Shown: positions 23,013 to 51,384 of the stretch, in pieces
Layout: each line of letters starts with the position of its first letter
Numbering within the stretch: position 1 is the stretch's first letter
Assembly (NCBI GenBank): GCA_900763875.1
Contig: CAAFLX010000038.1
Span: 18,429-82,428 of the forward strand
Reading direction: 5' to 3'
DNA from: Clostridia bacterium
GTDB lineage: Bacteria; Bacillota; Clostridia; Christensenellales; CAG-917
Length of the DNA stretch: 64,000 nt
Made by a program: the position numbers and the translations under genes
The notes under the pieces: model-generated
What the model was told of the DNA's origin: nothing
The model's input: the letters and a program-made list of their open reading frames with translations, nothing else
The model's database searches: none

Positions 23013-23876
23013 TTAATCGCGGTTTATCGTTGCGGTTTGCACGATAACACGGCGAAATTCGATGAATTGCTGAATCATATAAAAGCTGATTTGTATGAGC
23101 ATTATGCAGATGCCGGGCGCAAAAAGCCAGTTGTATTTGGCAAGGCTGATGCCGCCGTAGGTGTAGGCATAATTTACCATAACGCCCCAGGTTTCTTGTT
23201 CAAGACTGCCCATGCCGAGGAAACTCAACGTTGCCTCAACCATAATGCAGCTTGCAACGGAGGGAATAAATTTTGCCGCCGCAACGTCAAGCACGTTGGG
23301 CAAAACGTGGCGGAAAAGTATGCGGCAGGGGCTGTATCCGAGCGTTTTGAGCGAGCGCACGAAATCGGAATTTTTGACGCTCATGGTTTTGGCGCGCACC
23401 GCTCTTGCGGTCGAGCACCAGCAAAGCAAGGATATTGTCAAAATGATGCTCATCGAATCGCCCTTTGTGTAGGTGGCAATGACAATCGCCATGGGAAGCA
23501 TGGGTATGAGCAAGAAAAAGTTGATGATTCCGTTGACAGCCTCGCCTGCAACCTTGCCGGCATAGCCTGCTATGACGCCTACCACGACGCCTATAATCAC
23601 GCATACGAGCGCGCTCGTCACCCCCACAACCAGCGTAGGTCTTGTGGCGATGATGATTTGCGACCATATGTCGTAGCCGATGTTGTTTGTGCCAAGCAGA
23701 TGCTCTTTTGAGCAGGGCAAGAATTTTTCAAAAACTTCATTTGTGCCGTACGGCGCGATTTTCTCGCCGAATATGGCAAATATCGCAAACACGAGCAAAA
23801 TTGCAATGCCCACAACAAACGCAACCGTCGAGAGCGTTCTTCTCGTTTTGTAGCCGATGTGCAAAGCAGGTTTCAT
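23013..23876 (-). CDS. ABC transporter permease (OppC/DppC/NikC family)
   Basis: BPD_transp_1 type with six TM segments. Its start overlaps the upstream permease gene by 4 nt. Confidence 0.9.
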   Translation of the reverse strand: MKPALHIGYKTRRTLSTVAFVVGIAILLVFAIFAIFGEKIAPYGTNEVFEKFLPCSKEHLLGTNNIGYDIWSQIIIATRPTLVVGVTSALVCVIIGVVVGVIAGYAGKVAGEAVNGIINFFLLIPMLPMAIVIATYTKGDSMSIILTISLLCWCSTARAVRAKTMSVKNSDFVRSLKTLGYSPCRILFRHVLPNVLDVAAAKFIPSVASCIMVEATLSFLGMGSLEQETWGVMVNYAYTYGGISLAKYNWLFAPGICIMLIQISFYMIQQFIEFRRVIVQTATINRD

Positions 23877-24832
23877 CCTCTCCTCCTTTGCGACGGGTCG
23901 TCAATGGTGCTTATTGCGTCTGCTATAAAGTTTGAAATTATCACGCTGAGCGCAATCACAAGCAATGCGCCTTGCAGCACGGGAAAGTCCTTGTTGTTGA
24001 TCGCCTCGTTGACGAGCATACCCACACCGTCGATTGAGAAAATCTTTTCGATGACGATCGAGCCTGCAATCATATGTCCGAAACTCGTGCCGAGCATAGA
24101 TATAAACGGCGCGGAAATGTTTGGGAAGATATGCGTGTTGCGTATTCTCGCCCCTTGAAGTCCCTTTGCGCGAGCATACACGACGTATCTGTTTTCGCAA
24201 ACGCTTGCCGCTTGGTTGCGAACGAGAAGATATTTTTTTGGCGTTGATACGAGCGTGAGTGTGAACACAGGCAAAATGAGGTGCAAAAGCCTGTCGCCAA
24301 AGCCGCTTTTGCCAATGGAATTGAGTGCTCCCGATGGCAAAATATGCCACTTGAACGCAAAAAGTATCAACAACATAATTGCCATAAGAAAGTTGGGGAT
24401 TGCGTCGACAAGCACCATTGCCGAGCTTAACCCGACGTCGGTGAATTGCGATTTTTTAGAGCCTGCCAAAAGCCCCAACCAATATGCCAAAAGCGCGGAA
24501 AAGAGCCACGCCGGAAGTGCTATTTGAATTGTGCGAGTGATTTTTTCGCCGATTACGCCGCCCACGTCGCATCCAAGGTGGTAGGAATATCCCCACTCCC
24601 CTTTGAACAAGTTTTTTACGTATAGCCCGAACTGCTCGCCAAGCGGCTTGTCAAGCCCCATTTTTGAATACAATTCGTCATACTCCTCTTGCGTCATAAC
24701 GGTGTCGTCAGAGCCGATGAGGTTGTCAAGAGGGTCGCCGGGCATAAGACGGGGCAAGAAAAAATTGAACACGAAAATTGCGACCAACGCCACAATGGAA
24801 AATATTGCGTTTTTTGCGAATTTTCTTGCCAT
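23873..24832 (-). CDS. ABC transporter permease (OppB/DppB/NikB family)
   Basis: Typical N-terminus with FLPRLMPGDPL, and an EAA-like loop. Confidence 0.9.
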   Translation of the reverse strand: MARKFAKNAIFSIVALVAIFVFNFFLPRLMPGDPLDNLIGSDDTVMTQEEYDELYSKMGLDKPLGEQFGLYVKNLFKGEWGYSYHLGCDVGGVIGEKITRTIQIALPAWLFSALLAYWLGLLAGSKKSQFTDVGLSSAMVLVDAIPNFLMAIMLLILFAFKWHILPSGALNSIGKSGFGDRLLHLILPVFTLTLVSTPKKYLLVRNQAASVCENRYVVYARAKGLQGARIRNTHIFPNISAPFISMLGTSFGHMIAGSIVIEKIFSIDGVGMLVNEAINNKDFPVLQGALLVIALSVIISNFIADAISTIDDPSQRRRG

Positions 24833-24975
24833 TTTGCCCTTTGTTTTTTTGAATAATATTGTTTTTTGGGGCGGACTGCTTACGCCGCCCCTTGTGATTT
24901 TGTTGCTTTTATCGTTTTATCGAGCCGTCGAAAAGGCGGCTCGATAAAAAGTGAGTATTACGCTTTGCGCGCGAC

Positions 24976-26598
24976 TTATTTTGCGCTGGCTTCGCTCTTG
25001 GTGAGAGTTTCAAAACCGACAACGTTGAGAAGTCCGAGCTTGGTGTCGAGCTTGAGTCCGTCAAGTCTTGAAGAATATGCTTGAGTGTACTCATCATAGA
25101 ACATAGGCACAAAGACAACGTTTTTGACCATAAAGTCTTGATATTTGCCTGCCGCGACTTTAAGCTCGTCATCCGTTCTTGCGCCAATCATTGCTTTGAG
25201 GACTTTGCCATACTCGGTGAGATTGCCGTCTTTGTCCTCAACAATCATTTGTCCGTGGCAAGCGGGATTCAACTTGCCGGGCATCATACTGGTGCTTGGC
25301 GCAAGAGTGTATCTTGTTGCGTATCCTGCCTCGAAGCTGTAGCCTGCGTCGGTGATGCCCACAAGGTCAGCCATATGCTCGCCTGCCTTGTATGTAGCAA
25401 CCCAGTCTTCTTTGCCCTTTTCGTCCAAGGTGACGTTGACCATGCCGTTTTCTTCGATTTGAGTTTTGAGAAGTTTGGCATATTGGGTGTCGTTTGCCGC
25501 TTTGTTGACGAGAAGGTGGAACTCGAATTTTTTGGTTTCGCTGTAACCTGCCTCTTTCAAGAGTGCCTTTGCGGCTTCAAGATCGCGTTGCCAAACATCG
25601 GTTTCTTTATATCCGAAGATGGTGGGCGCAACCACGCCTTGTCTTGAGGGCTTGCTTTGTTCAGAACCGAAAGTCGCACGAATCTTGTCAAAGTCGATGG
25701 AGAGCGCGATTGCCTTTCTAACTCTTGCGTCAGTCACTTTTTGGTTGTTGAAGAACAAAGATTTGGGGATTGCTCTTGTTGTGTTGTCAACGTAAAGTTT
25801 GACGTCTTCAACGGTTTTGAGCGATTCGACAACGGCGGGACTAAGACCTTTTGCATAGTTGTAAACCATATCGATTTCCTTGGCTTTGAGTGCGCCGACA
25901 AGAACTTCTTCGTTTTGGAAAATTCTGAAAACAACCTTGTCAAACGCAATCTTTTTTGCGCCGGGATATTTTGCGTACTTGGTGAAAGTCAAAGTGCCGG
26001 CATTTTTGTCGTAGTTTTCATACTTGAACGGGCCTGCGCCGATGACGGAATCCGTGTCGGAGAGCGTTTCTTTGGTTTTGCCATCAAAAAGATGTTTGGG
26101 GACGATGACTTTGGACGCTACCGTTTCAAGGAACTTGCTTTCGGGAGTGCAAAGAGTGTAGACGAGGGAGTTGCCTTCCTTTTTGACTTCCGCATAGTCG
26201 GCATCCTTGGTCAACTTGGAAAAACCTGTTGACAAGGTGAATTCCACGTCATCGATGGTGAGAGGTGTGCCGTCGTGCCAAGTGAAGCCTTCTCTTAGCG
26301 TAACGGTGACGGTTTTTGCGCCTTCGCTTGTTTTGTAGTCGCAAGCAAGCGCGCGATATTCGCCGTCGATTTTTGCAAACGGCGTGAGTTGAGATACTGT
26401 TGCCGAAAGCATACTGAAGTTGTAGCCGGGTTGACCGCCTGTTGCGTCAAGTCTATTGAGGGACTTGACGGGCATTGACGTGCCGACAATCAAGGTCTTG
26501 CTGTCGGAGCTATTGTTGTTGCACGCAACGAGCACAACGCTCATGATAACGAGCATTGCAAGTGCGAGCACAAACAAGATTCTTTTGCTGTTTTTCAT
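24976..26598 (-). CDS. ABC transporter substrate-binding lipoprotein, family 5 (peptide/nickel)
   Basis: Has the lipobox VLVAC-N and SBP_bac_5-like sequence throughout. Confidence 0.9.
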   Translation of the reverse strand: MKNSKRILFVLALAMLVIMSVVLVACNNNSSDSKTLIVGTSMPVKSLNRLDATGGQPGYNFSMLSATVSQLTPFAKIDGEYRALACDYKTSEGAKTVTVTLREGFTWHDGTPLTIDDVEFTLSTGFSKLTKDADYAEVKKEGNSLVYTLCTPESKFLETVASKVIVPKHLFDGKTKETLSDTDSVIGAGPFKYENYDKNAGTLTFTKYAKYPGAKKIAFDKVVFRIFQNEEVLVGALKAKEIDMVYNYAKGLSPAVVESLKTVEDVKLYVDNTTRAIPKSLFFNNQKVTDARVRKAIALSIDFDKIRATFGSEQSKPSRQGVVAPTIFGYKETDVWQRDLEAAKALLKEAGYSETKKFEFHLLVNKAANDTQYAKLLKTQIEENGMVNVTLDEKGKEDWVATYKAGEHMADLVGITDAGYSFEAGYATRYTLAPSTSMMPGKLNPACHGQMIVEDKDGNLTEYGKVLKAMIGARTDDELKVAAGKYQDFMVKNVVFVPMFYDEYTQAYSSRLDGLKLDTKLGLLNVVGFETLTKSEASAK

Positions 26599-26708
26599 AG
26601 TTTTCTCCTATATATAATTTTTATTTTTTATCGATTTATAGCGATTTTGCGAACGTTTTGCCACCATTTCGGCTTTTCACGCAATATCCTGTACGTTTTG
26701 AGCGCCGT

Positions 26709-27407
26709 TTATTGCTCCTTTTCGACAACGCCGTCTTTCAAAAGATAGATTTCGTCGCAAAAATCTTTGACCGTTTCAAGATCGTGAGAGATGAACAGCA
26801 CGGATATGCCCAACGTAGCCACAAGTTTGTCGTACAGGTCGAGTATGCTTTTGGTGGTGGCGGGGTCGAGCATTGACGTTGATTCGTCACTTATGAGCAA
26901 AGTCGGCTGAATGGCAAGCGCACGTGCTATCACAAGCCTTTGCACTTGTCCGCCGCTCAAATGCAGCGGAAGCCTGTTCCAAAGCGTGCGCTCAAGCCCC
27001 ACCGTATCAAACAGTTGCAACGCCTTCTCTTTTGCATCCTTGCCGAGTTTTGCGTGCTTGGTTGCAACAAGTGCCTCTTTCACCGTATCCCCCGCGCGCT
27101 GCATAGGATCGAGCGCAAGCAATGGCTGTTGCGGCACAATCTGAATCTCTTTTCCGAGCAACTTGTCATACTTGCCTTTGTCGCTCCAAAGCGATTTGCC
27201 GTCTTTGAGCGCAACTCCGCAATCGGGAGCAACCGCTCCGCAAAGCACGTTGGCTATTGTTGACTTGCCCTCGCCGCTCTTGCCGATAAGCCCGACTTTT
27301 TTGCCGTCGCCTATCTCAAACGACACGTCCGTGAGGGCAACCGTGGCCGTTGCGCTTTTGCCTTTGCCGACGGAGAAAGTCTTGGATATGTTTTGCAATT
27401 CTATCAT
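26709..27407 (-). CDS. ABC transporter ATP-binding protein (OppF/NikE-like)
   Basis: Walker A is GKSGEGKST and the signature is LSGGQVQR. The start is the ATG at 27407, in an ATGA overlap with the upstream ATPase gene. Confidence 0.9.
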   Translation of the reverse strand: MIELQNISKTFSVGKGKSATATVALTDVSFEIGDGKKVGLIGKSGEGKSTIANVLCGAVAPDCGVALKDGKSLWSDKGKYDKLLGKEIQIVPQQPLLALDPMQRAGDTVKEALVATKHAKLGKDAKEKALQLFDTVGLERTLWNRLPLHLSGGQVQRLVIARALAIQPTLLISDESTSMLDPATTKSILDLYDKLVATLGISVLFISHDLETVKDFCDEIYLLKDGVVEKEQ

Positions 27408-28177
27408 TGTTTCGCCGTCCTTTGCAAAAGCGATTTGGTGTAGTCGTGCTTTGGCGAGGCGACAATGTCTTTTGACAAACCGTACTCCACTTGCTCGCCG
27501 CCTTTTAGCACAAGCATTTTGTCGCAAGTGGTTGCAAGGCTCATATCGTGCGTGACAAAAATCTTGGCACTGTCTTGAAACTCTTGGTTGACGCATTGCA
27601 AAAATACGTCCGCCGTTTCGGCGTCTATGCCGCGCGTCGCCTCGTCGGCAACGATAAGTTTGGGTTGCGAGCAAAGCGCGATTGCAAGCACAACCCTTTG
27701 CGCCTGTCCGCCGCTTATCTCGAAAGAATATTTTTCAAGTACCCTTTCGTCCTCAAGCCCCACTTTTGCCAAATTGAAAAGCGCGTGCTCTTTTTTTTGC
27801 GCCCTGTTGAGTTTCAAACCGCTGCGAGCAAAAGCCTCGTAAATCTGCGTCTTGATTTTCAAAGACGGGTTCAACGATTCGCTTGCGCCCTGCGGAATGA
27901 AAGCTATGCTCTTGCCCAAATTCCGTTTGAGCGCGCGCGAGTTTTTAAGCACGTTTTCGCCGTCGAAAACAACCGCTCCCGTTGCAAAACAGTTGTCGGC
28001 AAGCGCGCCTATGAGTGCGTCAACAATCATAGACTTGCCCGAGCCGGACTCTCCAACGATAGCCAACCGCTGTCCGTCTTCAAGGCTGAAAGATACGCCC
28101 CCGACTATCTTTTCGGTCGAGCGCAAAAACTCTGCGTATACGCAAAGATTCTCAACTTGAAGCACGATTTCACTCAT
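27404..28177 (-). CDS. ABC transporter ATP-binding protein (OppD/NikD-like)
   Basis: Walker A is GESGSGKS and the signature is ISGGQAQR. The start is ATG at 28177, with TTG at 28198 as an alternative. Confidence 0.9.
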   Translation of the reverse strand: MSEIVLQVENLCVYAEFLRSTEKIVGGVSFSLEDGQRLAIVGESGSGKSMIVDALIGALADNCFATGAVVFDGENVLKNSRALKRNLGKSIAFIPQGASESLNPSLKIKTQIYEAFARSGLKLNRAQKKEHALFNLAKVGLEDERVLEKYSFEISGGQAQRVVLAIALCSQPKLIVADEATRGIDAETADVFLQCVNQEFQDSAKIFVTHDMSLATTCDKMLVLKGGEQVEYGLSKDIVASPKHDYTKSLLQRTAKQ

Positions 28178-28247
28178 ACCTAAATTATAACAGTTCAAAA
28201 CAGTTGAATCAAGCTAAATCGCACACTATTGTACGGCAAATTGTCAC

Positions 28248-28366: not shown

Positions 28367-28921
28367 ATGAACAAGAAAATCAGCGCAACAACCGAGAAGA
28401 TTTACAACGCTTTTGCAGAGGTCTTGCTTGAAAAAGAGTACTCCGACGTGCGCATACAGGACGTGTTGGACAAGAGCGGCGTGGCGCGCAGCACTTTCTA
28501 TGCCCACTACAAAACCAAAGAGGATTTGCTCAAATCCATTTGCACCACCATTTTCGGGCACGTCTTCTCCCACTCCCTCGAAGAGGAGCAAAGCCACGAC
28601 TTCTCAAAATCGTCAATCTTTGACTACAAGCACTTCATCACGCACATCTTTTACCACCTGCACGACGAAAAAACCCTCGTCCACGCAATTCTGCTCTCGC
28701 AAAGCAAGGATACGTTTCTCAACTACCTACGCGGCGAATTGAGAGAATTTGCAACCGCTTGCGTGGAAAACAACTTTGTCACGGGCAAAGATCTTCCCAA
28801 ACCGCTGAAAATCAATTCGGTCATCGAAAACTTTGTGCTCCTCGTCGAATATTGGGACTCCACCGCCTTCACCGACACCCCCGAACGCCTGACCGAATAC
28901 TTTTTGATCATGAACGAATAA
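28367..28921 (+). CDS. TetR/AcrR-family transcriptional regulator
   Basis: The N-terminal HTH reads IQDVLDKSGVARSTFYAHYKTKEDLL. Confidence 0.9.
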   Translation: MNKKISATTEKIYNAFAEVLLEKEYSDVRIQDVLDKSGVARSTFYAHYKTKEDLLKSICTTIFGHVFSHSLEEEQSHDFSKSSIFDYKHFITHIFYHLHDEKTLVHAILLSQSKDTFLNYLRGELREFATACVENNFVTGKDLPKPLKINSVIENFVLLVEYWDSTAFTDTPERLTEYFLIMNE

Positions 28922-28965
28922 CCGAAAAACCGCATAAAACATGCAAACGGAGTGACACGGGAAAA

Positions 28966-29078
28966 ATGATATCACTTTGTGATGATATCGTGCATTGCAC
29001 GATGATATCGCACTTGGTGCGATGATATCCAACCGATGTTTGGATTGTGGAATATTCCACTTGCGCCAAAGGCGCACA
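28966..29078 (+). repeat. R4 array of GATATC-separated short hairpins
   Basis: GATATC sites lie at 28968, 28984, 29004 and 29024. The hairpins are atcac/gtgat, atcgtgc/gcacgat, atcgcac/gtgcgat and atccaa/ttggat, followed by two further palindromes. Confidence 0.85.
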
Positions 29079-29286: not shown

Positions 29287-29657
29287 TTGAGCAAGTGAGA
29301 TGAAGAACAAGAAAGAGCCTGCCAACATAGACAGGAGCGTACTCTGTGTACGTGACTGTTTATGGGGCAGACTCTGACACAGTTATTCGCTCAATATTTT
29401 ATAGAATAGTGTGCCAAATCGATAAAGAGCGAGGAAAAACCCCTTGCGCGGCAACCCTAATGTACATAAGGTACATGAGTTGACGAGCAAAGGGCTTTAA
29501 CAATGCTATTTGCAGAGATATTGTTTGTTGTAATAAAGCCGCTATTGAGATGAAGAACAAGGAAGAGCCTGCCAACATAGACAGGAGCGTACTTGGTGTA
29601 CGTGACTGTTTATGGGGCAGGCTCTGACACAGTTATTCGCTCAATAGCGGCTTTATT
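29287..29657 (+). repeat. R2 long-hairpin array, 3 units
   Basis: The units are approximately 29287-29396, 29406-29515 (variant apex) and 29533-29657. The last 3' arm, atagcggctttatt, contains the hypA stop codon. Confidence 0.9.
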
Positions 29658-29997
29658 CTACGGCGATTTCTTTGATAAGCATCTCGTTTCCACGCACCAA
29701 ATACGTCTTTTCACTGCCGCAATGGGGGCAGATTTTGCCGTATTGGACGGTGGGATATTCTTGCTTGCAAGACTCGCAGTAGGTGACGGCATTGATCGGT
29801 TCGATTTCAAGAATGCAACCGCGCAGAAGGTCGGTGCGGTTGGCATTCCAATTCCAACAATCTATAAGTTGCTCGTTCACAACGGTGGACACTTCGCCGA
29901 TTTGCAAGACAACTTTTTTGATTTTGGTCGCTTTGTTTTCGACGGCGACGTCGCGCACGATGTCCGCGATGTGAAAAACTACGCCCAATTCGTGCAT
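29653..29997 (-). CDS. hypA: Hydrogenase/urease nickel incorporation protein HypA
   Basis: Begins MHELGVV and has the zinc site CESC..CPHCG, at the typical length of 114 aa. Confidence 0.9.
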   Translation of the reverse strand: MHELGVVFHIADIVRDVAVENKATKIKKVVLQIGEVSTVVNEQLIDCWNWNANRTDLLRGCILEIEPINAVTYCESCKQEYPTVQYGKICPHCGSEKTYLVRGNEMLIKEIAVE

Positions 29998-30006
29998 TTC
30001 AACCTC

Positions 30007-32868
30007 TTATTTGTTGGCTTTCTTTGCCGCTTTTGCCGCTTTGACCGCCTCTTTATGTTTCTTTTGAGAGGCCTTTTCCTCGGCGGTTTTTTTGCCGAAC
30101 AAGATTCTCATGCCACGCTTGAATGCGTAAGGAAGAATGACTTTGAACTTGTCTTCACTGCGCACCATAGTGGAGCATTCGGGGTGTTCTCTGTGGAGCT
30201 TGATTGCGTCAAACTCGCACTTGGTGGTGCAGACACCGCAACCGATACACTTGTTTTCGTCCACGACGCTTGCGCCGCAACCGAGGCAACGTCCTGCCTC
30301 AATCTTGACTTGCTCGGCGGTGAGAGTGCCGTGCAAATCTCTGAAGGAGTGCTTGTCGCCATCAAGCTCTTTTGCCTCTTGTCTGCCTGCGGTGTCATAA
30401 CTGTCGATGACAAGGTTGTTTTTGTCAAGCTCGACAAATTGTCTGCGATTGCGACCGATTGTCATGCTTGTGCCCGGTTGCACGAAACGATGCAAAGATA
30501 CCGCCGCCATCTTGCCTGCCTCGATTGCGTCGATTGCAAATTTCGGGCCGCTGTACACGTCGCCGCCGACAAAGATGTCAGGTTCTGCGGTTTGATAGGT
30601 GAGTGAATCCGCAACGGGATAATTGCCGTGATGGAATTCAACCTTTGTGCCTTTGAGCAAGTCACCCCACACGATGGATTGTCCGATTGCAAAGATGACG
30701 TGGCTTGCCTCGACGGTGAGGGTTTCGTTTTCGTCATAAACGGGGCTGAACTTGTTGGTGGCGGGGTCAACAACACGCAAGCACTTCTTGAACACGACTG
30801 CCTTGACCGTGCCGTCGTCGTTTTTGAGGATTTCTTTGGGGCCCCAACCGTTGTTGATTGAGATTCCGTCTTCAAGTGTTTCCTCGATTTCGTTTTTGCT
30901 TGCAGGCATGGTATCTCTCGATTCGAGGCAATACATACCGACCTCTTCACTGCCGAAACGAACGGCGGTGCGAGCGCAGTCCACGGCAACGTTTCCGCCG
31001 CCGATGACAACGGTTTTGCCATCGAGTTTTCTGTCGTGATTCTCGGTTGCATCGTGCAAGAACGAAACAGCCATATCCGTGCCGATTGCGTCCTCGCCGG
31101 GGACTCCGGGGAGCCTGCCGCCTTGGCAGCCGATTGCAATGTAGAATGCTTGATAGCCTTGCTTTCTGAGGTCTGCAATGGTGACATCCTTGCCCACATC
31201 TACACCCGTCTTAAACTCAACGCCAAGCTCGCGCAAAACGTCGATTTCCGCATCGATAACGTCTTTTTCGAGCTTGTAGGACGGAATGCCGTAAGTGAGC
31301 ATACCACCGAGTTTCTCGTTCTTTTCAAACACGGTGGGAAGATAGCCCTTGGTTGCAAGATAGTAGGCGCAAGAAAGACCTGCAGGGCCTGCGCCGATGA
31401 TTGCAATCTTTTGTCCCCAATGCTTTTCGACGTTGGACGGAATGACCACTTCGGGAACGTATCTTGTTTCGGCGTGCAAATCTTGCTCTGCGATGAACTT
31501 CTTGATGTCGTCGATTGCAACCGCCTCGTCAATCGTGCCTCTGGTGCAAGCCGCCTCGCAACGCTTGTTGCAAACGCGACCGCAGATTGCAGGGAACGGA
31601 TTGTCCTTTTTGATGAGCGCAAGAGCCTCTCTGTATTTGCCCTCTTTTGCCTTGCGAATGTAGCCTTGGACGGCGATGTGCGCAGGGCATGCCGCCTTGC
31701 ACGGGGACGTGCCCGTTTCATAGCAGTTGATGCGGTTGTTGTCCCTGTAATCTTCGTCCCACTTGTCAGGGCCCCAAGAGAGATTGTCGGGAAGTTCGTG
31801 TTTCGGATATTTGATTTCGCCTTGCTTTGTGCAAAGTTTTTGTCCGAGCTTGACCGCGCCTGCAGGGCAGAATTCCACGCACTTGCCGCAAGCGACGCAC
31901 TTGTCTTTTTCAACGCGCGCGACGTATGCGCTTCTCGACATGTTGGGCGTGTTGAAAAGTTGCGACGTGCGAAGCGCGTTGCAGACGTTGAGGTTGCAGT
32001 TGCAGATTGCAAAAATCTTGTTTTCGCCGTCGATGTTGGTGATTTGGTGAACGAAACCGTTCTTTTCGGCGCGTTGGAGAATCTCCATTGCCTCTTCATA
32101 AGTGACGTCGCGACCCTTGCCCGTTTCGCGGCAGAAGTCCGCCATATCGCCGATGCCGATGCACCACTCTTCACAGCTGTCGCCGCAGCCCTCGCCGAGC
32201 TTCGATCTGCCGTAACGGCAAGAGCAAATGCCAACGCCGAGGTGTCCCTCGTATTTTTTGAGCCAGTAGGAAATATGCTCGATGTCCATCGTGCCGTTTT
32301 CCATCTCGATGGCTTTTTCAACGGGAATGACGTGCATACCGATGCCTGCGCCTCCCGGAGGAACCATGGGCGTGACCATTGTCAAAGGAAGATACGTCAT
32401 ACGCTCGAAGAACATCGCAAGTTCGGGGTGTTCGTCAAGCTGCTTTTTGATCATATTGGTGAACTCGGCAGAGCCGGGCACGAACATCGGCAAAACGTAG
32501 CGACGCTCTTTCTTTGCGCCGGGGATAGGCCCGTCATGATCGTAGTTGTTGCCGTAGTCGTACTCGATTACACCGACATAGCTCATCTTGTCGAGAAGTT
32601 CTTGCAACTTTTCGGCACTCAATTCGGGGTTCATCTTTTTGAGATCCTCGAACGTGTAGTGTTTGCGCACCTTCATTTTGAGAGCAACGTCCGCCATCTC
32701 GTCGGTGACAACGCAACGAAGCCCCCAGTACTCGGGGTCGTCTGCCGTCACACCTTTAATCTTGTGGTCGACGCAGTCCGTGATTTTTCTTGCTAATTTG
32801 AGGATTTTTTCACTCGGATTCTTCTCGCCCATATACTTGGGTTTGAACGCCTTGCTCATCTCAGCCAT
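30007..32868 (-). CDS. Multidomain Fe-S flavoprotein: Cys-rich N-terminal domain, 4Fe-4S ferredoxin, GltD/NfnB-like FAD/NAD(P) oxidoreductase, and a C-terminal 2x[4Fe-4S]
   Basis: Contains [43 protein letters not shown] and CLGCG..CIGCGVCTTKC. The start is the ATG at 32868, after ggagaaaac. Confidence 0.85.
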   Translation of the reverse strand: MAEMSKAFKPKYMGEKNPSEKILKLARKITDCVDHKIKGVTADDPEYWGLRCVVTDEMADVALKMKVRKHYTFEDLKKMNPELSAEKLQELLDKMSYVGVIEYDYGNNYDHDGPIPGAKKERRYVLPMFVPGSAEFTNMIKKQLDEHPELAMFFERMTYLPLTMVTPMVPPGGAGIGMHVIPVEKAIEMENGTMDIEHISYWLKKYEGHLGVGICSCRYGRSKLGEGCGDSCEEWCIGIGDMADFCRETGKGRDVTYEEAMEILQRAEKNGFVHQITNIDGENKIFAICNCNLNVCNALRTSQLFNTPNMSRSAYVARVEKDKCVACGKCVEFCPAGAVKLGQKLCTKQGEIKYPKHELPDNLSWGPDKWDEDYRDNNRINCYETGTSPCKAACPAHIAVQGYIRKAKEGKYREALALIKKDNPFPAICGRVCNKRCEAACTRGTIDEAVAIDDIKKFIAEQDLHAETRYVPEVVIPSNVEKHWGQKIAIIGAGPAGLSCAYYLATKGYLPTVFEKNEKLGGMLTYGIPSYKLEKDVIDAEIDVLRELGVEFKTGVDVGKDVTIADLRKQGYQAFYIAIGCQGGRLPGVPGEDAIGTDMAVSFLHDATENHDRKLDGKTVVIGGGNVAVDCARTAVRFGSEEVGMYCLESRDTMPASKNEIEETLEDGISINNGWGPKEILKNDDGTVKAVVFKKCLRVVDPATNKFSPVYDENETLTVEASHVIFAIGQSIVWGDLLKGTKVEFHHGNYPVADSLTYQTAEPDIFVGGDVYSGPKFAIDAIEAGKMAAVSLHRFVQPGTSMTIGRNRRQFVELDKNNLVIDSYDTAGRQEAKELDGDKHSFRDLHGTLTAEQVKIEAGRCLGCGASVVDENKCIGCGVCTTKCEFDAIKLHREHPECSTMVRSEDKFKVILPYAFKRGMRILFGKKTAEEKASQKKHKEAVKAAKAAKKANK

Positions 32869-33538
32869 TGTCGTTTTCTCCTTTGAAAATTTGTATTGTT
32901 TTGTATATTCTATCTTCAAGCACGTCAAGCCCCTCCCCCGTCTTTGCGCTCACGTAGAAGATTTGCGCGTCGGGATTGAGCCTTGAAATATGCTCTTCAA
33001 ATCTTGATTTGTCAAAGTCGAACGCTTCGAGCGTGTCTATCTTTGTGACGACGATAAGGTCGCACTTTTCAAACATCAAAGGATATTTGAGAGGCTTGTC
33101 GTCCCCCTCGGGTACGGACAAAAGCATCATATTGAGGTGCGCGCCCGTGTCGAACTCGGCAGGACATACAAGGTTGCCTATGTTTTCAAGCACGATGAGG
33201 TCGCAATCGTCAAACGCCGCTTGGTTGAGTGCCTCGCTCACCATATCCGCGTCGATATGGCAAAGTCCGCCGTTGTGAATTTGCACGCTCTCTATGCCTG
33301 CGCCCTCCGCTATGCGGCGCGCGTCAACGTCAGTTTCGATGTCAACGTCCATCGCAACCACTTTGAGCTTGGTTTTGACGCTCTTCAAAAGCGCGCTCAA
33401 AAGCGTGGTCTTGCCGCTGCCCGGCGAGGACATCACGTTGAGAAGGAACGTGCCTTTGCTTTTCAAAGTCGCTCTCAATGCGTCCGCTGTCTTTTCGTTG
33501 TTTGAAAATATACTCTCTTTGACGGAAATAACTCTCAT
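32861..33538 (-). CDS. hypB: HypB-family nickel metallochaperone GTPase, paralogue 2
   Basis: Contains SSPGSGKTT, GGLCHIDA, ENIGNLVCPAEFD, EGDDKPLKYP and VTKID. Confidence 0.9.
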   Translation of the reverse strand: MRVISVKESIFSNNEKTADALRATLKSKGTFLLNVMSSPGSGKTTLLSALLKSVKTKLKVVAMDVDIETDVDARRIAEGAGIESVQIHNGGLCHIDADMVSEALNQAAFDDCDLIVLENIGNLVCPAEFDTGAHLNMMLLSVPEGDDKPLKYPLMFEKCDLIVVTKIDTLEAFDFDKSRFEEHISRLNPDAQIFYVSAKTGEGLDVLEDRIYKTIQIFKGENDNG

Positions 33539-34209
33539 TTCAAGCCCCCTCTCCACTCGTTGTAATTGTCCAGCAGATAGTCCGAAAGCGCGCCTATACC
33601 CTCGCCCGTGCGCGCAGATACCTCAAATACCTTTGCGCTCGGATTGACTCTTGCGATATATTCCTTGCATCTGTCAACGTCAAAATCAAAATACTTTGCC
33701 GTGTCGCACTTTGTGAGCACCACCAAGTCCGCAACAGAAAACATAAGCGAATATTTGAGCGGTTTGTCGTCACCCTCCGGAAGTGCCAACAACACCATTT
33801 TCAAGTGCGCACCCGTGTCGAACTCGGCAGGACAAACGAGGTTGCCGATGTTTTCCAAAAATACCAGCTCCGCACCCGTTGCAAACTCCTTGAAACCTTG
33901 CCTCGACATATCCGCGTCCAAATGGCACATACCGCCCGTGTGAAGTTGGATTGCCTCCGCACCGGCCTCACGCACCGTGTATGCGTCCACGTCGCCGTCG
34001 ATATCCGCCTCCATAACGCCAACCTTGACCTTGTCTTTCAAAGTCTTGGTGAGCGCGCATAGCAGCGTCGTCTTGCCGCTGCCCGGCGCAGACATCACGT
34101 TGACGTAGTAAACCCCTGCCTCGTCAAGCTCGGCACGGAGTTTGTTTGCATCGGCATCATTGTTTTGAATGATGCTCTCTTTCAGTTCAATTGTTCTAAT
34201 AGAATCCAT
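33535..34209 (-). CDS. hypB: HypB-family nickel metallochaperone GTPase, paralogue 1
   Basis: Contains SAPGSGKTT, GGMCHLDA, ENIGNLVCPAEFD, EGDDKPLKYS and LTKCD. Confidence 0.9.
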   Translation of the reverse strand: MDSIRTIELKESIIQNNDADANKLRAELDEAGVYYVNVMSAPGSGKTTLLCALTKTLKDKVKVGVMEADIDGDVDAYTVREAGAEAIQLHTGGMCHLDADMSRQGFKEFATGAELVFLENIGNLVCPAEFDTGAHLKMVLLALPEGDDKPLKYSLMFSVADLVVLTKCDTAKYFDFDVDRCKEYIARVNPSAKVFEVSARTGEGIGALSDYLLDNYNEWRGGLK

Positions 34210-34280
34210 ACTAGCCTCTCTTTGGCTTTTATTGTAACACTTGTAAAATATATTTTCAATATATTTGAAAAATTTAAGTT

Positions 34281-34647
34281 TTGAAGTTGCACATACCGTG
34301 CATAATCACGCTACGAATGAGTGTAACTTCTTCCTCTACAAGGAGTTGGGCGTGAACCCTTAATTCAATTTCCCCCTTCCTCACGTGTTTCCCCCACCGC
34401 CGTTCCCCCTTAAAAGGGAACCCACGGCGTCCGCTCCGCGTGGGGCAACACTCAGCACTCGCATAGATTGCTATCGTCCTCTTATTATGCCACTGCGCTT
34501 TGTGCGCCGGCTTCGCAACAGAATGGCGCAGTCGCTTGTACCGTCTGTCAAGCTCGGCGTTCGCTTTTCTCGCCGCCTTGCGGCTCGCACCCTGAATAAG
34601 CACATTCCGTTAATAAGAACGCCCAGAATGAGTGTTCGCTTATCCGC
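34281..34647 (+). repeat. R1 structured repeat, copy C
   Basis: A full element including both flanking direct repeats, gcacataccgtgcataat... and gcacattccgttaataag... Confidence 0.9.
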
Positions 34648-34668
34648 TTGCGTGCAAAGCACGCTAAA

Positions 34669-34748
34669 CACCAAGCAGAAAATCTTGCGAAATTGTGGCA
34701 GGAGTTTTTGCACCTACCTAAAACTGATAGCAAAGATTTTCTGCGCGG
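34669..34748 (+). repeat. R3 hairpin repeat
   Basis: The stem is gcagaaaatcttgc/gcaaagattttctgc. Confidence 0.85.
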
Positions 34749-34778
34749 TTAGCAGACTGAAAACCTAGCAAGGCTCTT

Positions 34779-34860
34779 GGCAATCGCCACTATGCTTACG
34801 CTTCTATTTAGGGGATTCCCACGTCGCTTTGCTCCTCTGAATGACATTAGAGGCGATTGC
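34779..34860 (+). repeat. R5 hairpin with the conserved loop box
   Basis: The stem ggcaatcgcc/ggcgattgc covaries with the copy at 29188. The same loop box is present: tttaggggattcccacgtcgctttgctcctctgaatgaca. Confidence 0.8.
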
Positions 34861-34875
34861 AATTGCCTTAGCGAC

Positions 34876-35251
34876 GATTTTCAGTCGGATGAAGAACACG
34901 GAAAAGCCTGCCAACATAGACAGGAGCGTACTTGTCGTACGTGACTGTTTATGGGGCAGGCTTTGACAAAGTTATTCGCCAAATCATCTTTAATCTTGTA
35001 AAAACGCACTATTTGGATGAAGAACAAGAAAACGCCCTTTTGCGAACTCGCCTAGCGTACTTGAAGTACGTGACGGGTGAGCAAAAGGGCGTTGCCGCAG
35101 TTATTCGCCAAATCATTTATAACTTTGTAAAAACGCACTATTTGGATGAAGAACACGGAAAAGCCTGCCAACATAGACAGGAGCGTACTTGTCGTACGTG
35201 ACTGTTTATGGGGCAGGCTTTGACAAAGTTATTCGCCAAATAGTGCGTTTT
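34876..35251 (+). repeat. R2 long-hairpin array, 3 units
   Basis: The units are approximately 34876-34985, 35000-35115 and 35128-35251. The last 3' arm, atagtgcgttttt-a, contains the stop codon of the ABC/FtsX gene. Confidence 0.9.
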
Positions 35252-38200
35252 TAGTCTACGCGGAGAGCATCCACAACGTTCTTCCTCGACGCCATAATCG
35301 CAGGAATTATGCCTGAGATTATCGTCAGTGCCAAGCTGAGGCAGACGAGAATGAAGGCGTGGAGCGGATGGAAGTGCAACAGCGAGCCGATGCCTGCAAC
35401 TGCTTTGATGATGACGGACACGATTGGACAGAGAATGTAGGTGACGAGAATACCTATGAGCCCGCTTGTGAGTCCGATGAGCGAGGTTTCGGCGATAAAG
35501 ACGTTGCGTATATCCTGCTTTCGCGCGCCGATTGCGCGGAGTATGCCGATTTCACGAGTACGCTCGACAACGGAGTTGGAGGTGATGACGCCGATCATAA
35601 CGGTGGATACGACAAGAGATATTGCCGCAACCGCGATGAGCATTGCAGATACGAGGTCGAGCGTGCTGCGCATATTGACAAGGAACATTTCGGACACGTC
35701 AAAGTAGCCAATCTCGCCCTTGCCGTCGTGTTGCCATGCCTCGATATACTTGCCCGACTTAACCTTTTGATTGCTGTCGTTGGGGAACACGGTAACGTAA
35801 TACGGGCTTCTATCCGCTCCGATTGCTCTCATAAAGTAGGTGTATTGGAGCGCGGGAACGCCGCTCATTGCATAAAGTGCCGTCGAGCCTTGTTGCGAAA
35901 AGTCAACTTCGTTGTTCAAGCGCACGTTCTTGAAAACCGTCTTTTTGCCGGTGGTTGTGTTTTTGTCAAGTTCGAGTTGGCGTTTGACAAGAGTGCTCTC
36001 GCTCGCGCTCTTGAGGGTGCTTTCGGCAAGCGCGCTCGTATAGCATATGGACGAGGTGACGTAGGTGTGTTCGGTTTGCTTTTTCGCTCTTATAACGCCG
36101 ACAACTTTGATTTCATCGTTGGAATCCTCATACATCTTTTTGAGCAACGCTTGAGATTCGGTTGAATCGTCATAGCTCCACATCAACGTGCTGCTTGCTT
36201 TTTCGCTGAACGGGTCAAGAAAGCTGCTGCTACCGCCGTCTTCTTCCTCCGTTTTGCTTTTTCCGATGCCGACGTTGTTGAGATACTTGCCGCTTGCCTC
36301 GTCATAGACGTAATAGTTGTCGTTTCCCACAAGTTTGAAGGTTTGACCGAGGAAATATTCGTACGGCACGTTGTCGGTGTCCATTTTTTTGGGTTTGCCC
36401 TCGTCGTCAAAAACTATATTGCCGTTTGCGTCCTTTTCGTAAACGTCGATGCCAAATGCGTTCAGCACGTCTTTGGATATGGTGTTGTCGGAGTTTACGC
36501 AAAGCAAAACTTCGTTTTTGTTTTTGGGATAACGACTGCCCTCGCCCACAAAATCATAGGAGCGCATCGTGACTTCTTCGCTTGCGACAAGTTCTTGCCA
36601 ATACTTGGCTTGAAGTCCGTTTTCGCCGAGTACGGTGGTTGCAATCGCCGTGGTTGTCAAGGGCTTCGGTTGTTGCGATACGTCCTTGTAGGTGACGTTG
36701 CCGTCGGCGTCGTACGTCTTGCGCACAAGGTTGTACCTCAAGCCGTAGGAGATGCCGAGAGCAGTGTAATAATCCTTGGGCATCGCTTTCATATAATCGG
36801 CAAATTCCTCGGTCAACTCGTTCTTTTGAACGCCGTTCATAAAGGAAGTGACCATTGACAAAGTCATCTTTGCAATCATACTGTTTGCGCTGCCTGCGCT
36901 GCCCGACACTTTGATGTCGTCCGTATCGGGAGCGGGCTTTGTCGAGCCTTGACCGGACGGTCTTTCCATCATGCTGGACATCAAGTCCATAATCGCGCTG
37001 CTTGACACGTTGTATTGATAAACGCCAAGAGGCACGCCTGCGAGCAAGTCGTTTTCCATTCTTGCAAGGTAGAGATTGAATCCGTTGTAAATGGACAGCA
37101 CGAGCGCAAGACCTATTATGCCGATTGCGCCTGCAAAAGACGTGAGCAACGTGCGGCGTTTTTTGGACACGAGGTTTTTAAGGCTCAATCCAAACGCCAT
37201 ACCCGGACTCATAGACGTGGGCTTGAACGCCCTGTCCCTCTTCTTTTTCTTTTTGGAAAGGCTGTTGAGGCCGAGCTTGTCAAAGAGCGCGTCCGTCTCC
37301 TCTCCGACGTTTTTCATTGCGTTTTTACGCTTGCGATTCGACACCTTTTTCTTTTTGGGCGCGTCCTCGCAATGTTGTTCGGTTTGAGGGTTTATGCTGT
37401 CATTTTGAGCGGTTGGAGTGCTTGTTTGGACATTTTGTGCATCGTCAACGTCGTCTGTCGTAACGATGCCGAACACTGATTTTTCGTCGTCGCTTGCGAT
37501 TGAAATTTCCTCGTCTTGCACCGTGGACACGTCGTCCGTTTGCGCCGTTTCGCCGCTCTCGACGTCCTCTTTTTTCTCGATTTCGGGATAGAAAGGATTG
37601 GTATCTTCGATGAGCTGTCCGTCCTTAAAACGGCAAATACGCGTGGCGTATTGATAGGCAAGTTCGGCGTTGTGCGTGACCATAATGACGAGGCGATTTT
37701 TGGAAATCTCTTGCAATATATCCATAACCTGCACGCTAAGCTCGCTGTCCAACGCGCCCGTCGGCTCGTCCGCCAAAATGATTTTGGGGTCGTTGACGAT
37801 TGCACGCGCAATCGCTACGCGCTGCATTTGACCGCCCGAAAGTTGGTTGGGCTTTTTGTCAATCTCCTCGTGCATATTGACTTTGTGAAGAGCGGCAACC
37901 GCCTTTGCTCTTCTCGCCTTTTTCTTTTCGCCCACAAGGCTCAAGGCAAGCTCGACGTTTTCAAGTACGGTGAGGTGAGGAATGAGGTTGTAGCTTTGAA
38001 AAACAAAACCGATGGTTGCGTTGCGGTAGGCGTCCCAGTGCTCGTCGTCGAAATCGGCAGTGGAAACTCCGCCGATGACGAGATCGCCCGACGTATATCT
38101 GTCAAGACCGCCTATGATGTTGAGCATGGTCGTTTTGCCGCAACCGCTCGGGCCTAGAATCGCCACAAACTCGCTTTCGCGGAAGTTGAGTGACACGCTC

Positions 38201-38265
38201 CTCAGTGCGTGAACGGTTGTCGTTGCGGTGGGATAATCTTTTACTACGTCTTTTAGTTGAAGCAT
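35251..38265 (-). CDS. Fused ABC transporter ATP-binding domain and FtsX/MacB-type permease (1004 aa)
   Basis: The N-terminal ABC domain has GPSGCGKTT and LSGGQMQR. A low-complexity linker follows, then a large extracytoplasmic domain and a C-terminal FtsX 4-TM module. Confidence 0.9.
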   Translation of the reverse strand: MLQLKDVVKDYPTATTTVHALRSVSLNFRESEFVAILGPSGCGKTTMLNIIGGLDRYTSGDLVIGGVSTADFDDEHWDAYRNATIGFVFQSYNLIPHLTVLENVELALSLVGEKKKARRAKAVAALHKVNMHEEIDKKPNQLSGGQMQRVAIARAIVNDPKIILADEPTGALDSELSVQVMDILQEISKNRLVIMVTHNAELAYQYATRICRFKDGQLIEDTNPFYPEIEKKEDVESGETAQTDDVSTVQDEEISIASDDEKSVFGIVTTDDVDDAQNVQTSTPTAQNDSINPQTEQHCEDAPKKKKVSNRKRKNAMKNVGEETDALFDKLGLNSLSKKKKKRDRAFKPTSMSPGMAFGLSLKNLVSKKRRTLLTSFAGAIGIIGLALVLSIYNGFNLYLARMENDLLAGVPLGVYQYNVSSSAIMDLMSSMMERPSGQGSTKPAPDTDDIKVSGSAGSANSMIAKMTLSMVTSFMNGVQKNELTEEFADYMKAMPKDYYTALGISYGLRYNLVRKTYDADGNVTYKDVSQQPKPLTTTAIATTVLGENGLQAKYWQELVASEEVTMRSYDFVGEGSRYPKNKNEVLLCVNSDNTISKDVLNAFGIDVYEKDANGNIVFDDEGKPKKMDTDNVPYEYFLGQTFKLVGNDNYYVYDEASGKYLNNVGIGKSKTEEEDGGSSSFLDPFSEKASSTLMWSYDDSTESQALLKKMYEDSNDEIKVVGVIRAKKQTEHTYVTSSICYTSALAESTLKSASESTLVKRQLELDKNTTTGKKTVFKNVRLNNEVDFSQQGSTALYAMSGVPALQYTYFMRAIGADRSPYYVTVFPNDSNQKVKSGKYIEAWQHDGKGEIGYFDVSEMFLVNMRSTLDLVSAMLIAVAAISLVVSTVMIGVITSNSVVERTREIGILRAIGARKQDIRNVFIAETSLIGLTSGLIGILVTYILCPIVSVIIKAVAGIGSLLHFHPLHAFILVCLSLALTIISGIIPAIMASRKNVVDALRVD

Positions 38266-51261: not shown

Positions 51262-51384
51262 AAAACCGCGATATTGAGATGAAGAACAAGGAAAAACCGC
51301 TCGCACAGATAGGAGCGTACTTATCGTACGTGACTATTTGTGTGAGCGGTTTTGACACAGTTATTCGCTCAATAGCGCGGTTTT
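51262..51384 (+). repeat. R2 long hairpin, single unit
   Basis: The outer stem is aaaaccgcgatattgag/ctcaatagcgcggtttt. The 3' end contains the stop codon of the phosphoesterase gene. Confidence 0.9.

Follow-up and report, generated by a model that had tools for sequence, protein, structure and literature searches.

What do the nickel metallochaperones HypA and HypB serve in a genome in which profile searches find no [NiFe]-hydrogenase? In the best-known cases the pair delivers nickel to [NiFe]-hydrogenase (Escherichia coli, Thermococcus) and to urease (Helicobacter pylori). The question is raised by a four-gene operon in a draft genome of a Clostridia bacterium (Christensenellales; CAG-917; assembly GCA_900763875.1), of which we analyzed a stretch of 64,000 nucleotides (contig CAAFLX010000038.1, positions 18,429 to 82,428; hereafter the window). 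Here, two tandem hypB genes (hypB1 and hypB2) are followed by the gene of a large iron-sulfur (Fe-S) flavoprotein and then by hypA, and the initial annotation, made from the sequence alone, had taken the flavoprotein for the only candidate client of HypA and HypB (HypAB) and raised the possibility of a new nickel enzyme. Our preferred reading, to which we assign a probability of roughly two in three, is that the flavoprotein is a reductase of the IsrA family and the client of HypAB, with nickel loaded at a six-cysteine (Cys6) centre and a hydrophobic unsaturated compound as substrate. Both the hyp link and the nickel hypothesis have already been published for this family (PMC10134865), and the value of the window is corroboration.

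The operon and its flavoprotein

Re-reading of the open reading frames and junction letters reproduced the initial annotation exactly in gene set, strand, order, and all three junctions (coordinates in Table 1). The hypB1 stop and hypB2 start overlap as ATGA, the hypB2 stop and the flavoprotein start share 8 nt (ATGGCTGA), and the flavoprotein gene is separated from hypA by a 9-nt gap with a GAGG ahead of hypA (TAA-gaggttgaa-ATG). A promoter-like site before hypB1 was the top score of a promoter scan in the region (10/12 matches, as a match to consensus only), and the same hexamers occur upstream of hypB1 in a relative (locus L015), while a terminator-like site after hypA (29585-29568) combines a hairpin stem with a T-rich tail. 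Because a promoter-like site precedes hypB1 and a T-tailed hairpin follows hypA, the four genes look like a self-contained operon with its own promoter and terminator; transcription would start from the sigma-70-like promoter just before hypB1 and end at hairpin repeats past hypA.

The flavoprotein comprises, in order, a winged-helix-like N-terminus, a Cys6 subdomain, a ferredoxin motif, a Fer4_20 domain with two [4Fe-4S] clusters, an FAD/NAD(P)H core resembling GltD (the small subunit of glutamate synthase) and NfnB (the large subunit of NADH-dependent ferredoxin:NADP+ oxidoreductase), and a C-terminal ferredoxin motif. Pfam recognizes Fer4, Fer4_20, Pyr_redox_2, and the C-terminal Fer4 and assigns no family to the ~300 N-terminal residues. 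Homologues of 883-945 aa align over the full length, and the N-terminal domain recurs in more than 8000 homologues. The best NCBIfam matches, PRK12771 and gltA/GltD-type models, all fall below cut-off (PRK12771, 438 versus 516 bits), and the protein shares the NfnB/GltD core but does not score as an equivalog of either.

A closer counterpart is the 901-aa Acetobacterium wieringae protein that Kronen et al. (2023, mSystems) named IsrA, a putative isoprene reductase, whose ~900-aa homologues across anaerobes form their "clade 9" (PMC10134865). In IsrA, CxC motifs lie at Cys180/182 and Cys254/256 and a ferredoxin motif starts at residue 289 (PMC10134865). The window protein has CSC at 215, CNC at 289, and its ferredoxin motif at 324, and a paralogue encoded on another contig of the same genome (C17) has CxC motifs at 182 and 256 and a ferredoxin motif at 291, so that the spacings of 74 residues (CxC to CxC) and 35 residues (to the ferredoxin motif) are the same in all three. 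Since domain order, motif spacing, and hyp context match, both proteins from this genome are assigned to the IsrA "clade 9" family, a placement made by architecture and gene context rather than by identity to IsrA. In an alignment of 47 sequences, which extends to distant members of full length, N-domain proteins that stand alone, and the C17 paralogue, the residues C215, C217, R218, C236, H274, C289, N290, C291, and C296 are invariant.

On the proposed mechanism, NAD(P)H would reduce the FAD in the GltD/NfnB-like core, and electrons would run along the [4Fe-4S] chain to the N-terminal Cys6 subdomain, where the six invariant cysteines (two CxC motifs and two more), together with the invariant histidine and arginine, may hold a catalytic metal centre. 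The HypB GTPase or GTPases and HypA would load nickel into this centre, which would make the flavoprotein, and not a hydrogenase, their client. Nickel at the Cys6 site, with its two CxC motifs in the N-terminal domain, was likewise proposed for IsrA (PMC10134865). The substrate would probably be a hydrophobic unsaturated compound, by analogy with the reduction of isoprene to methylbutene.

Structure prediction gave no template for the site. The first 375 residues, modelled with AlphaFold2 (mean predicted local distance difference test, pLDDT, 78; predicted template modelling score, pTM, 0.79), contain a winged-helix-like region at ~14-168, and a fold search with the whole N-domain matched that region alone, to winged-helix regulators with Z scores up to 6.9, in the range of common arrangements. 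The Cys6 subdomain modelled by itself (pLDDT 74) found no match among solved PDB structures (best VIA Z 2.9; best Foldseek E 0.28), and these searches recovered no likeness to the ACS A-cluster, CODH, or double-cubane proteins; no solved metalloenzyme can therefore be used as a template for the site, while an empty search with a predicted model would not amount to a new fold. Complex prediction of the N-terminal domain with HypA scored 0.00, which is no verdict, and is counted neither way.

Linkage, client, and metal

The association with hyp genes is conserved far beyond the window. One homologue, 75% identical and present on hundreds of contigs, shows the order hypB-X-hypA (X being the flavoprotein gene) with overlapping junctions among unrelated neighbours (NAPRTase, pst genes). 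Scanning species-representative genomes gave 80 flavoprotein loci, hosted by Christensenellales-like metagenome-assembled genomes (MAGs; 88-89% identity), Erysipelotrichaceae, Lachnospiraceae, Oscillospiraceae, Bacteroidales, Spirochaetes, Eggerthellaceae, and Acholeplasmatales. Of these, 53 species-level loci contain the whole gene and no less than 1.6 kb of flank on either side; hypA is adjacent in 52 of them and hypB in 42, the commonest order being hypB-X-hypA (35 loci). The published survey of 988 homologues has hypA within five genes in 73% and hypB in 56% (PMC10134865). The adjacency counts run opposite to the case, envisaged by the initial annotation, of a flavoprotein family that usually occurs without hyp genes.

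The same holds in 399 genomes drawn evenly from the class of the window's genome, a sample whose members are related, hence not independent, so that its figures are counts and not statistics. A full-length homologue occurs in 27 of them, with hypA and hypB beside it every time, and 18 of these 27 genomes have no [NiFe] large subunit. Of the nine genomes with both systems, most have a separate hypA at each locus and three a separate hypB. HypB itself was found in 47 genomes (18 with the flavoprotein only, nine with both, 19 with hydrogenase only, and one with neither), a clear pattern in which HypB in this class is almost confined to genomes with a hydrogenase or an IsrA-type flavoprotein.

The rest of the window's genome (1.61 Mb, 39 contigs, estimated 98% complete) bears on the ordinary explanation, in which the hyp genes are displaced and assist a standard [NiFe]-hydrogenase, urease, or CODH encoded at another locus. 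Whole-genome profile searches gave no match to the [NiFe] large subunit (PF00374), Complex1_49kDa (PF00346), HypD (PF01924), urease alpha (PF00449), CODH/HCP (PF03063), or LarA (PF09861), hypC, hypE, and hypF not being searched one by one, and the lack of a hydrogenase, urease, or CODH client that had been noted for the window thus extends to the whole genome. A small region could be missing from a 39-contig draft; with neither large subunit, HypD, urease alpha, nor CODH/HCP matched at 98% completeness, and no [NiFe] large subunit in 18 of the 27 sampled carriers either, we regard displaced genes as hardly credible.

What the initial annotation had missed is a second flavoprotein-hypA module on contig C17 (G000, locus L012: 8546-12292, minus strand). 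This module, with frr, uppS, cdsA, and dxr immediately downstream, consists of a TetR gene, the flavoprotein paralogue directly downstream of it (887 aa, 50% identical overall to the window protein), and directly after that a HypA of 137 aa (34% identical to the window HypA), with no hypB. Searching the genome with the flavoprotein N-domain returned this paralogue as the only other match, and the total is two flavoproteins, two HypAs, and two HypBs.

HypAB might instead serve some other, unrecognized nickel protein, with the flavoprotein a mere neighbour or a redox helper in nickel handling. The search for known nickel enzymes covered [NiFe]-hydrogenase, urease, CODH, and LarA, and a small nickel enzyme (glyoxalase I, acireductone dioxygenase) or nickel superoxide dismutase (Ni-SOD) might be such a client; the genome needs a nickel source either way, with a Nik-like importer nearby. 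However, the three-gene linkage and its overlapping junctions are kept in Bacillota, Bacteroidota, Spirochaetota, and Actinomycetota while other neighbours vary, hydrogenase-bearing genomes still keep a separate hypA beside the flavoprotein, and in A. wieringae the other nickel enzymes have maturases of their own (PMC10134865). We consider this alternative improbable, and the flavoprotein as HypAB client is well supported by comparative genomics; of the idea in the initial annotation this part stands, its nickel enzyme stays conditional, and its novelty does not hold, the proposal dating from 2023.

The chaperones themselves bear on the metal. Both HypBs score far over the cut-off of the NCBIfam HypB equivalog TIGR00073 (HypB1, 230 bits; HypB2, 234 bits; cut-off 121), and the motifs previously noted, the P-loop GSGKTT, GGMCHLDA in HypB1 and GGLCHIDA in the other copy, and ENIGNLVCPAEFD, are all present, as is ENIGNLVCP in both. 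Each keeps the CH...C metal site of the G-domain and, as the initial annotation had said, has no Cys- or His-rich N-terminus (no CxxCGC and no His stretch), like H. pylori-type HypB. HypA matches Pfam PF01155 (106.7 bits; cut-off 28.9), and its Met-His-Glu (MHE) start and the Cys pairs C74/C77 and C90/C93 are invariant in 38/38 module-linked HypAs.

Several points weigh against the preferred reading. It is from the chaperones alone that we infer nickel; HypB G-domains bind zinc as well as nickel at their Cys/His site, a structural zinc site is present in HypA, and the delivered metal could differ accordingly. The window HypA scores 76.7 bits against the TIGR00100 equivalog, below the cut-off of 88.1, which suggests a diverged HypA subfamily. 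hypB is not adjacent in 10 of the 53 loci, and the flavoprotein core taken by itself resembles ordinary GltD/NfnB electron-transfer proteins, which need no nickel. Moreover, other homologue-bearing Acetobacterium strains do not reduce isoprene (PMC10134865).

The zinc binding of HypB and the low TIGR00100 score of HypA also favour the main alternative, namely that the chaperones mature the flavoprotein with zinc, iron, or cobalt or take part in building, at the Cys6 site, an Fe-S cluster of an unusual kind. The linkage evidence gives a client relationship and not the identity of the metal, and the Cys6 site has also been likened to P-cluster or double-cubane sites (PMC10134865). Against this, the N-terminal Met-His-Glu nickel motif is invariant in all module-linked HypAs examined, and both HypBs are far over the equivalog cut-off. 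To our knowledge, no HypA/HypB pair delivers another metal. On balance we think delivery of another metal unlikely and nickel loading at the Cys6 centre the better account.

The two HypB copies differ in origin. They are 55% identical (BLASTP), and in a maximum-likelihood tree HypB1 groups with the HypBs of single-copy modules, which on this topology makes hypB1 the orthologue of the single hypB of most such modules. HypB2 and the second copies of L013-L015 and L046 form a clade of their own (support 100/98; the L046 sequences are long branches), and tandem hypB is confined, among the 80 loci, to four, which belong to the three closest relatives and a single Oscillospiraceae MAG, and, within the class sample, to the window's genome. 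Because the second copies form their own clade and HypB1 groups with single-copy HypBs, hypB2 is, as far as the tree can tell, an older, distinct, and rare paralogue and not a recent duplicate. A role for HypB2 as chaperone of the second module was considered and is weakened, since a single HypB accompanies two flavoprotein paralogues in sampled genomes, and only one paralogue was seen in three of the four other tandem-hypB genomes (which are of uncertain completeness); hypB2 is thus probably not there to serve the second module. A HypB1/HypB2 heterodimer would be a reasonable idea, and HypB2 may instead have a task of its own.

Further observations concern the family and its distribution. N-domains from Bacteroidales, Spirochaetes, and Coriobacteriia (L027, L033, L034, L038, and others) are 61-69% identical to that of the window protein, and the HypB tree contains cross-phylum pairings, e.g., L081 (Oscillospiraceae) with L090 (Alloprevotella) and L021 with L025 (Coriobacteriaceae); together, this identity and the pairing of HypBs across phyla point to horizontal transfer of the whole module. 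In a genome of the window genome's own family, an IsrA-like gene by hypB/hypA (G008:C15:37415-38653) holds two stops, TGA and TAA, and may be a pseudogene or an assembly error. Carriers in culture include Pseudobutyrivibrio xylanivorans DSM 14809 (L031) and Pseudobutyrivibrio ruminis AD2017 (L022), and Subdoligranulum variabile has cultured strains as well, although its locus L070 comes from a MAG. Nine genomes of the class sample have N-domain-only matches (ten matches, 110-131 bits, frames of ~376-461 aa; e.g., G398:C142:93952-94746 and G330:C44:37059-37838), which keep the Cys6 residues in aligned examples, resemble the "4Fe-4S ferredoxin" of the isr operon, and were not beside hypA in the one case checked. 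In family f31, nine genomes (G170, G195, G061, G220, G267, G091, G144, G244, and G027) encode a divergent HypA-like protein (58-68 bits, profile positions 7-110) and gave no match to a [NiFe] large subunit, an IsrA-like gene, or HypB, which may represent a third HypA context.

Should nickel be confirmed, the few nickel enzymes known would gain a new catalytic class in the IsrA family, which is very frequent among gut and rumen bacteria, with 2969 sequences in a single 90%-identity cluster. The window's genome is a clean case for the client relationship, with two flavoprotein-HypA modules, two HypBs, and none of the searched nickel enzymes: the CODH/ACS and LarA of A. wieringae cloud the client inference there, and searches for CODH/HCP and LarA found neither here. 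Taken all together, one could picture the IsrA family as a new nickel(-iron-sulfur) enzyme class widespread in gut and rumen anaerobes, matured in this lineage by a heterodimeric HypB1/HypB2, with a 1.6-Mb genome keeping nickel chaperones, and perhaps import, solely for two reductases whose targets would be unactivated C=C bonds in hydrophobic compounds from the diet or the host; as a whole this picture is speculative, and we would rate it as doubtful.

Surroundings of the operon

The operon is flanked by copies of a ~90-nt intergenic repeat, two per side (Table 1), and blastn found 35 copies of it genome-wide, forming a long hairpin (-31 kcal/mol). It looks like an element of the REP (repetitive extragenic palindromic) or MITE (miniature inverted-repeat transposable element) kind that may double as a terminator, and the copy directly after hypA probably marks the 3' end of the operon. 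Further copies within the window lie at 51278-51364 and 1512-1586.

Table 1. Positions of the operon genes, their signals, and neighbouring features in the window
Feature	Position	Strand	Remarks
Nik/Opp/Cnt-type ATP-binding cassette (ABC) importer	23013-28198	minus	two ATPases, binding protein, two permeases
TetR-family regulator	28367-28921	plus	convergent with operon; TetR_N and TetR_C_8 domains
Hairpin repeat, second copy beyond hypA	29299-29386
Hairpin repeat (~90 nt)	29549-29636	minus	directly after hypA; terminator-like stem, T-rich tail
hypA	29653-29997	minus	nickel metallochaperone, 114 aa
Fe-S flavoprotein gene	30007-32868	minus	953 aa counted from ATG; IsrA family ("clade 9")
Cys6 site region	31981-32226	minus	residues 215-296 (CSC ... 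C ... H ... CNC ... C); candidate nickel / Fe-S catalytic site
hypB2	32861-33538	minus	HypB paralogue, 225 aa counted from ATG
hypB1	33535-34209	minus	HypB GTPase, 224 aa
Promoter-like site	34231-34259	minus	TTGAAA-N17-TACAAT, TG-extended -10; 22 nt before hypB1 ATG
Hairpin repeats, two copies	35140-35232 and 34887-34975	minus	upstream of operon, past MacB-like gene
MacB-like ABC/FtsX gene	35251-38265		upstream neighbour of operon

Between the MacB-like gene and hypB1 lies ~1 kb (34260-35250) with no convincing gene; a 109-aa open reading frame at 34274-34603 was assigned to no family, and an Rfam scan gave no match in this interval outside the repeats. A riboswitch or some other RNA element was considered for the 650 untranslated nt before hypB1 and set aside, the Rfam scan being empty there. 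On the other side, a sub-threshold match to the Rfam Gut-1 RNA (28964-29033, plus strand; 46.7 bits versus a gathering score of 50; E = 9e-7) is placed between the TetR gene, which it directly follows, and the hairpin repeats.

Two neighbours may be functionally related to the operon. The TetR regulator is a candidate only; TetR_N adjoins 21% of IsrA homologues (PMC10134865). The importer lies 1.5 kb downstream of hypA and is one of two Opp/Nik-type ABC systems in the genome, in which CbiM/NikM and NiCoT nickel transporters were not found. Its best NCBIfam matches are nickel-type or opine-metal models, all below cut-off (Opp2B nickel permease, 229 versus 350 bits), including NikD, NikE, and CntD/F. 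It may be a nickel importer, of uncertain membership in the system: the idea that it is a conserved module component was rejected, because it was not found beside the module in relatives and its family scores are below cut-off, while in L015, the nearest relative that shares genes upstream, the contig breaks off shortly after hypA.

Comparison with known systems

The isr operon of A. wieringae is the closest known system. Domain order, the Cys6 site with its 74- and 35-residue spacings, adjoining hypA and hypB, a nearby TetR gene, a short type 1 HypB without the N-terminal metal site, and a host without [NiFe]-hydrogenase are all the same, the A. wieringae strain also being without hypCDEF (PMC10134865). 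The proteins of the isr operon are isoprene-induced, and in Pelotomaculum hypA rises 373-fold and hypB 585-fold with isoprene (PMC10134865; bioRxiv 10.64898/2026.02.25.708027). The differences are also clear. The isr operon has five genes, among them hypA twice, hypB once, and the gene of a 4Fe-4S ferredoxin whose N-domain is related to that of IsrA, whereas the window operon reads hypB-hypB-X-hypA, with one hypA and no such ferredoxin, and so is not an isr operon in the strict sense; its flavoprotein has 953 aa against the 901 of IsrA; and its host has a small, gut-type genome with none of the searched nickel enzymes, whereas A. wieringae has CODH/ACS and LarA. Isoprene reduction itself would not be expected of the window protein. 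What the window adds to the published case is a host without the searched nickel enzymes, two modules in 1.6 Mb, and, as a new lead, the distinct HypB2 paralogue.

With NfnB, GltD, and DsrL-type proteins, the flavoprotein shares the two-cluster Fer4_20 domain and the Pyr_redox_2 FAD/NAD(P)H core, but NfnB and GltD have neither the ~320-residue N-terminal domain nor the extra ferredoxin motifs, and no link to hyp genes. With the HypAB of hydrogenase and urease systems, the operon shares the chaperone families themselves, including the MHE start and zinc-binding Cys pairs of HypA and the P-loop and CH...C site of HypB. The candidate client, however, is here a flavoprotein with a Cys-rich site, in a genome where no large subunit, HypD, or urease was found, and the hyp genes bracket the gene of that candidate client in one translationally coupled operon.

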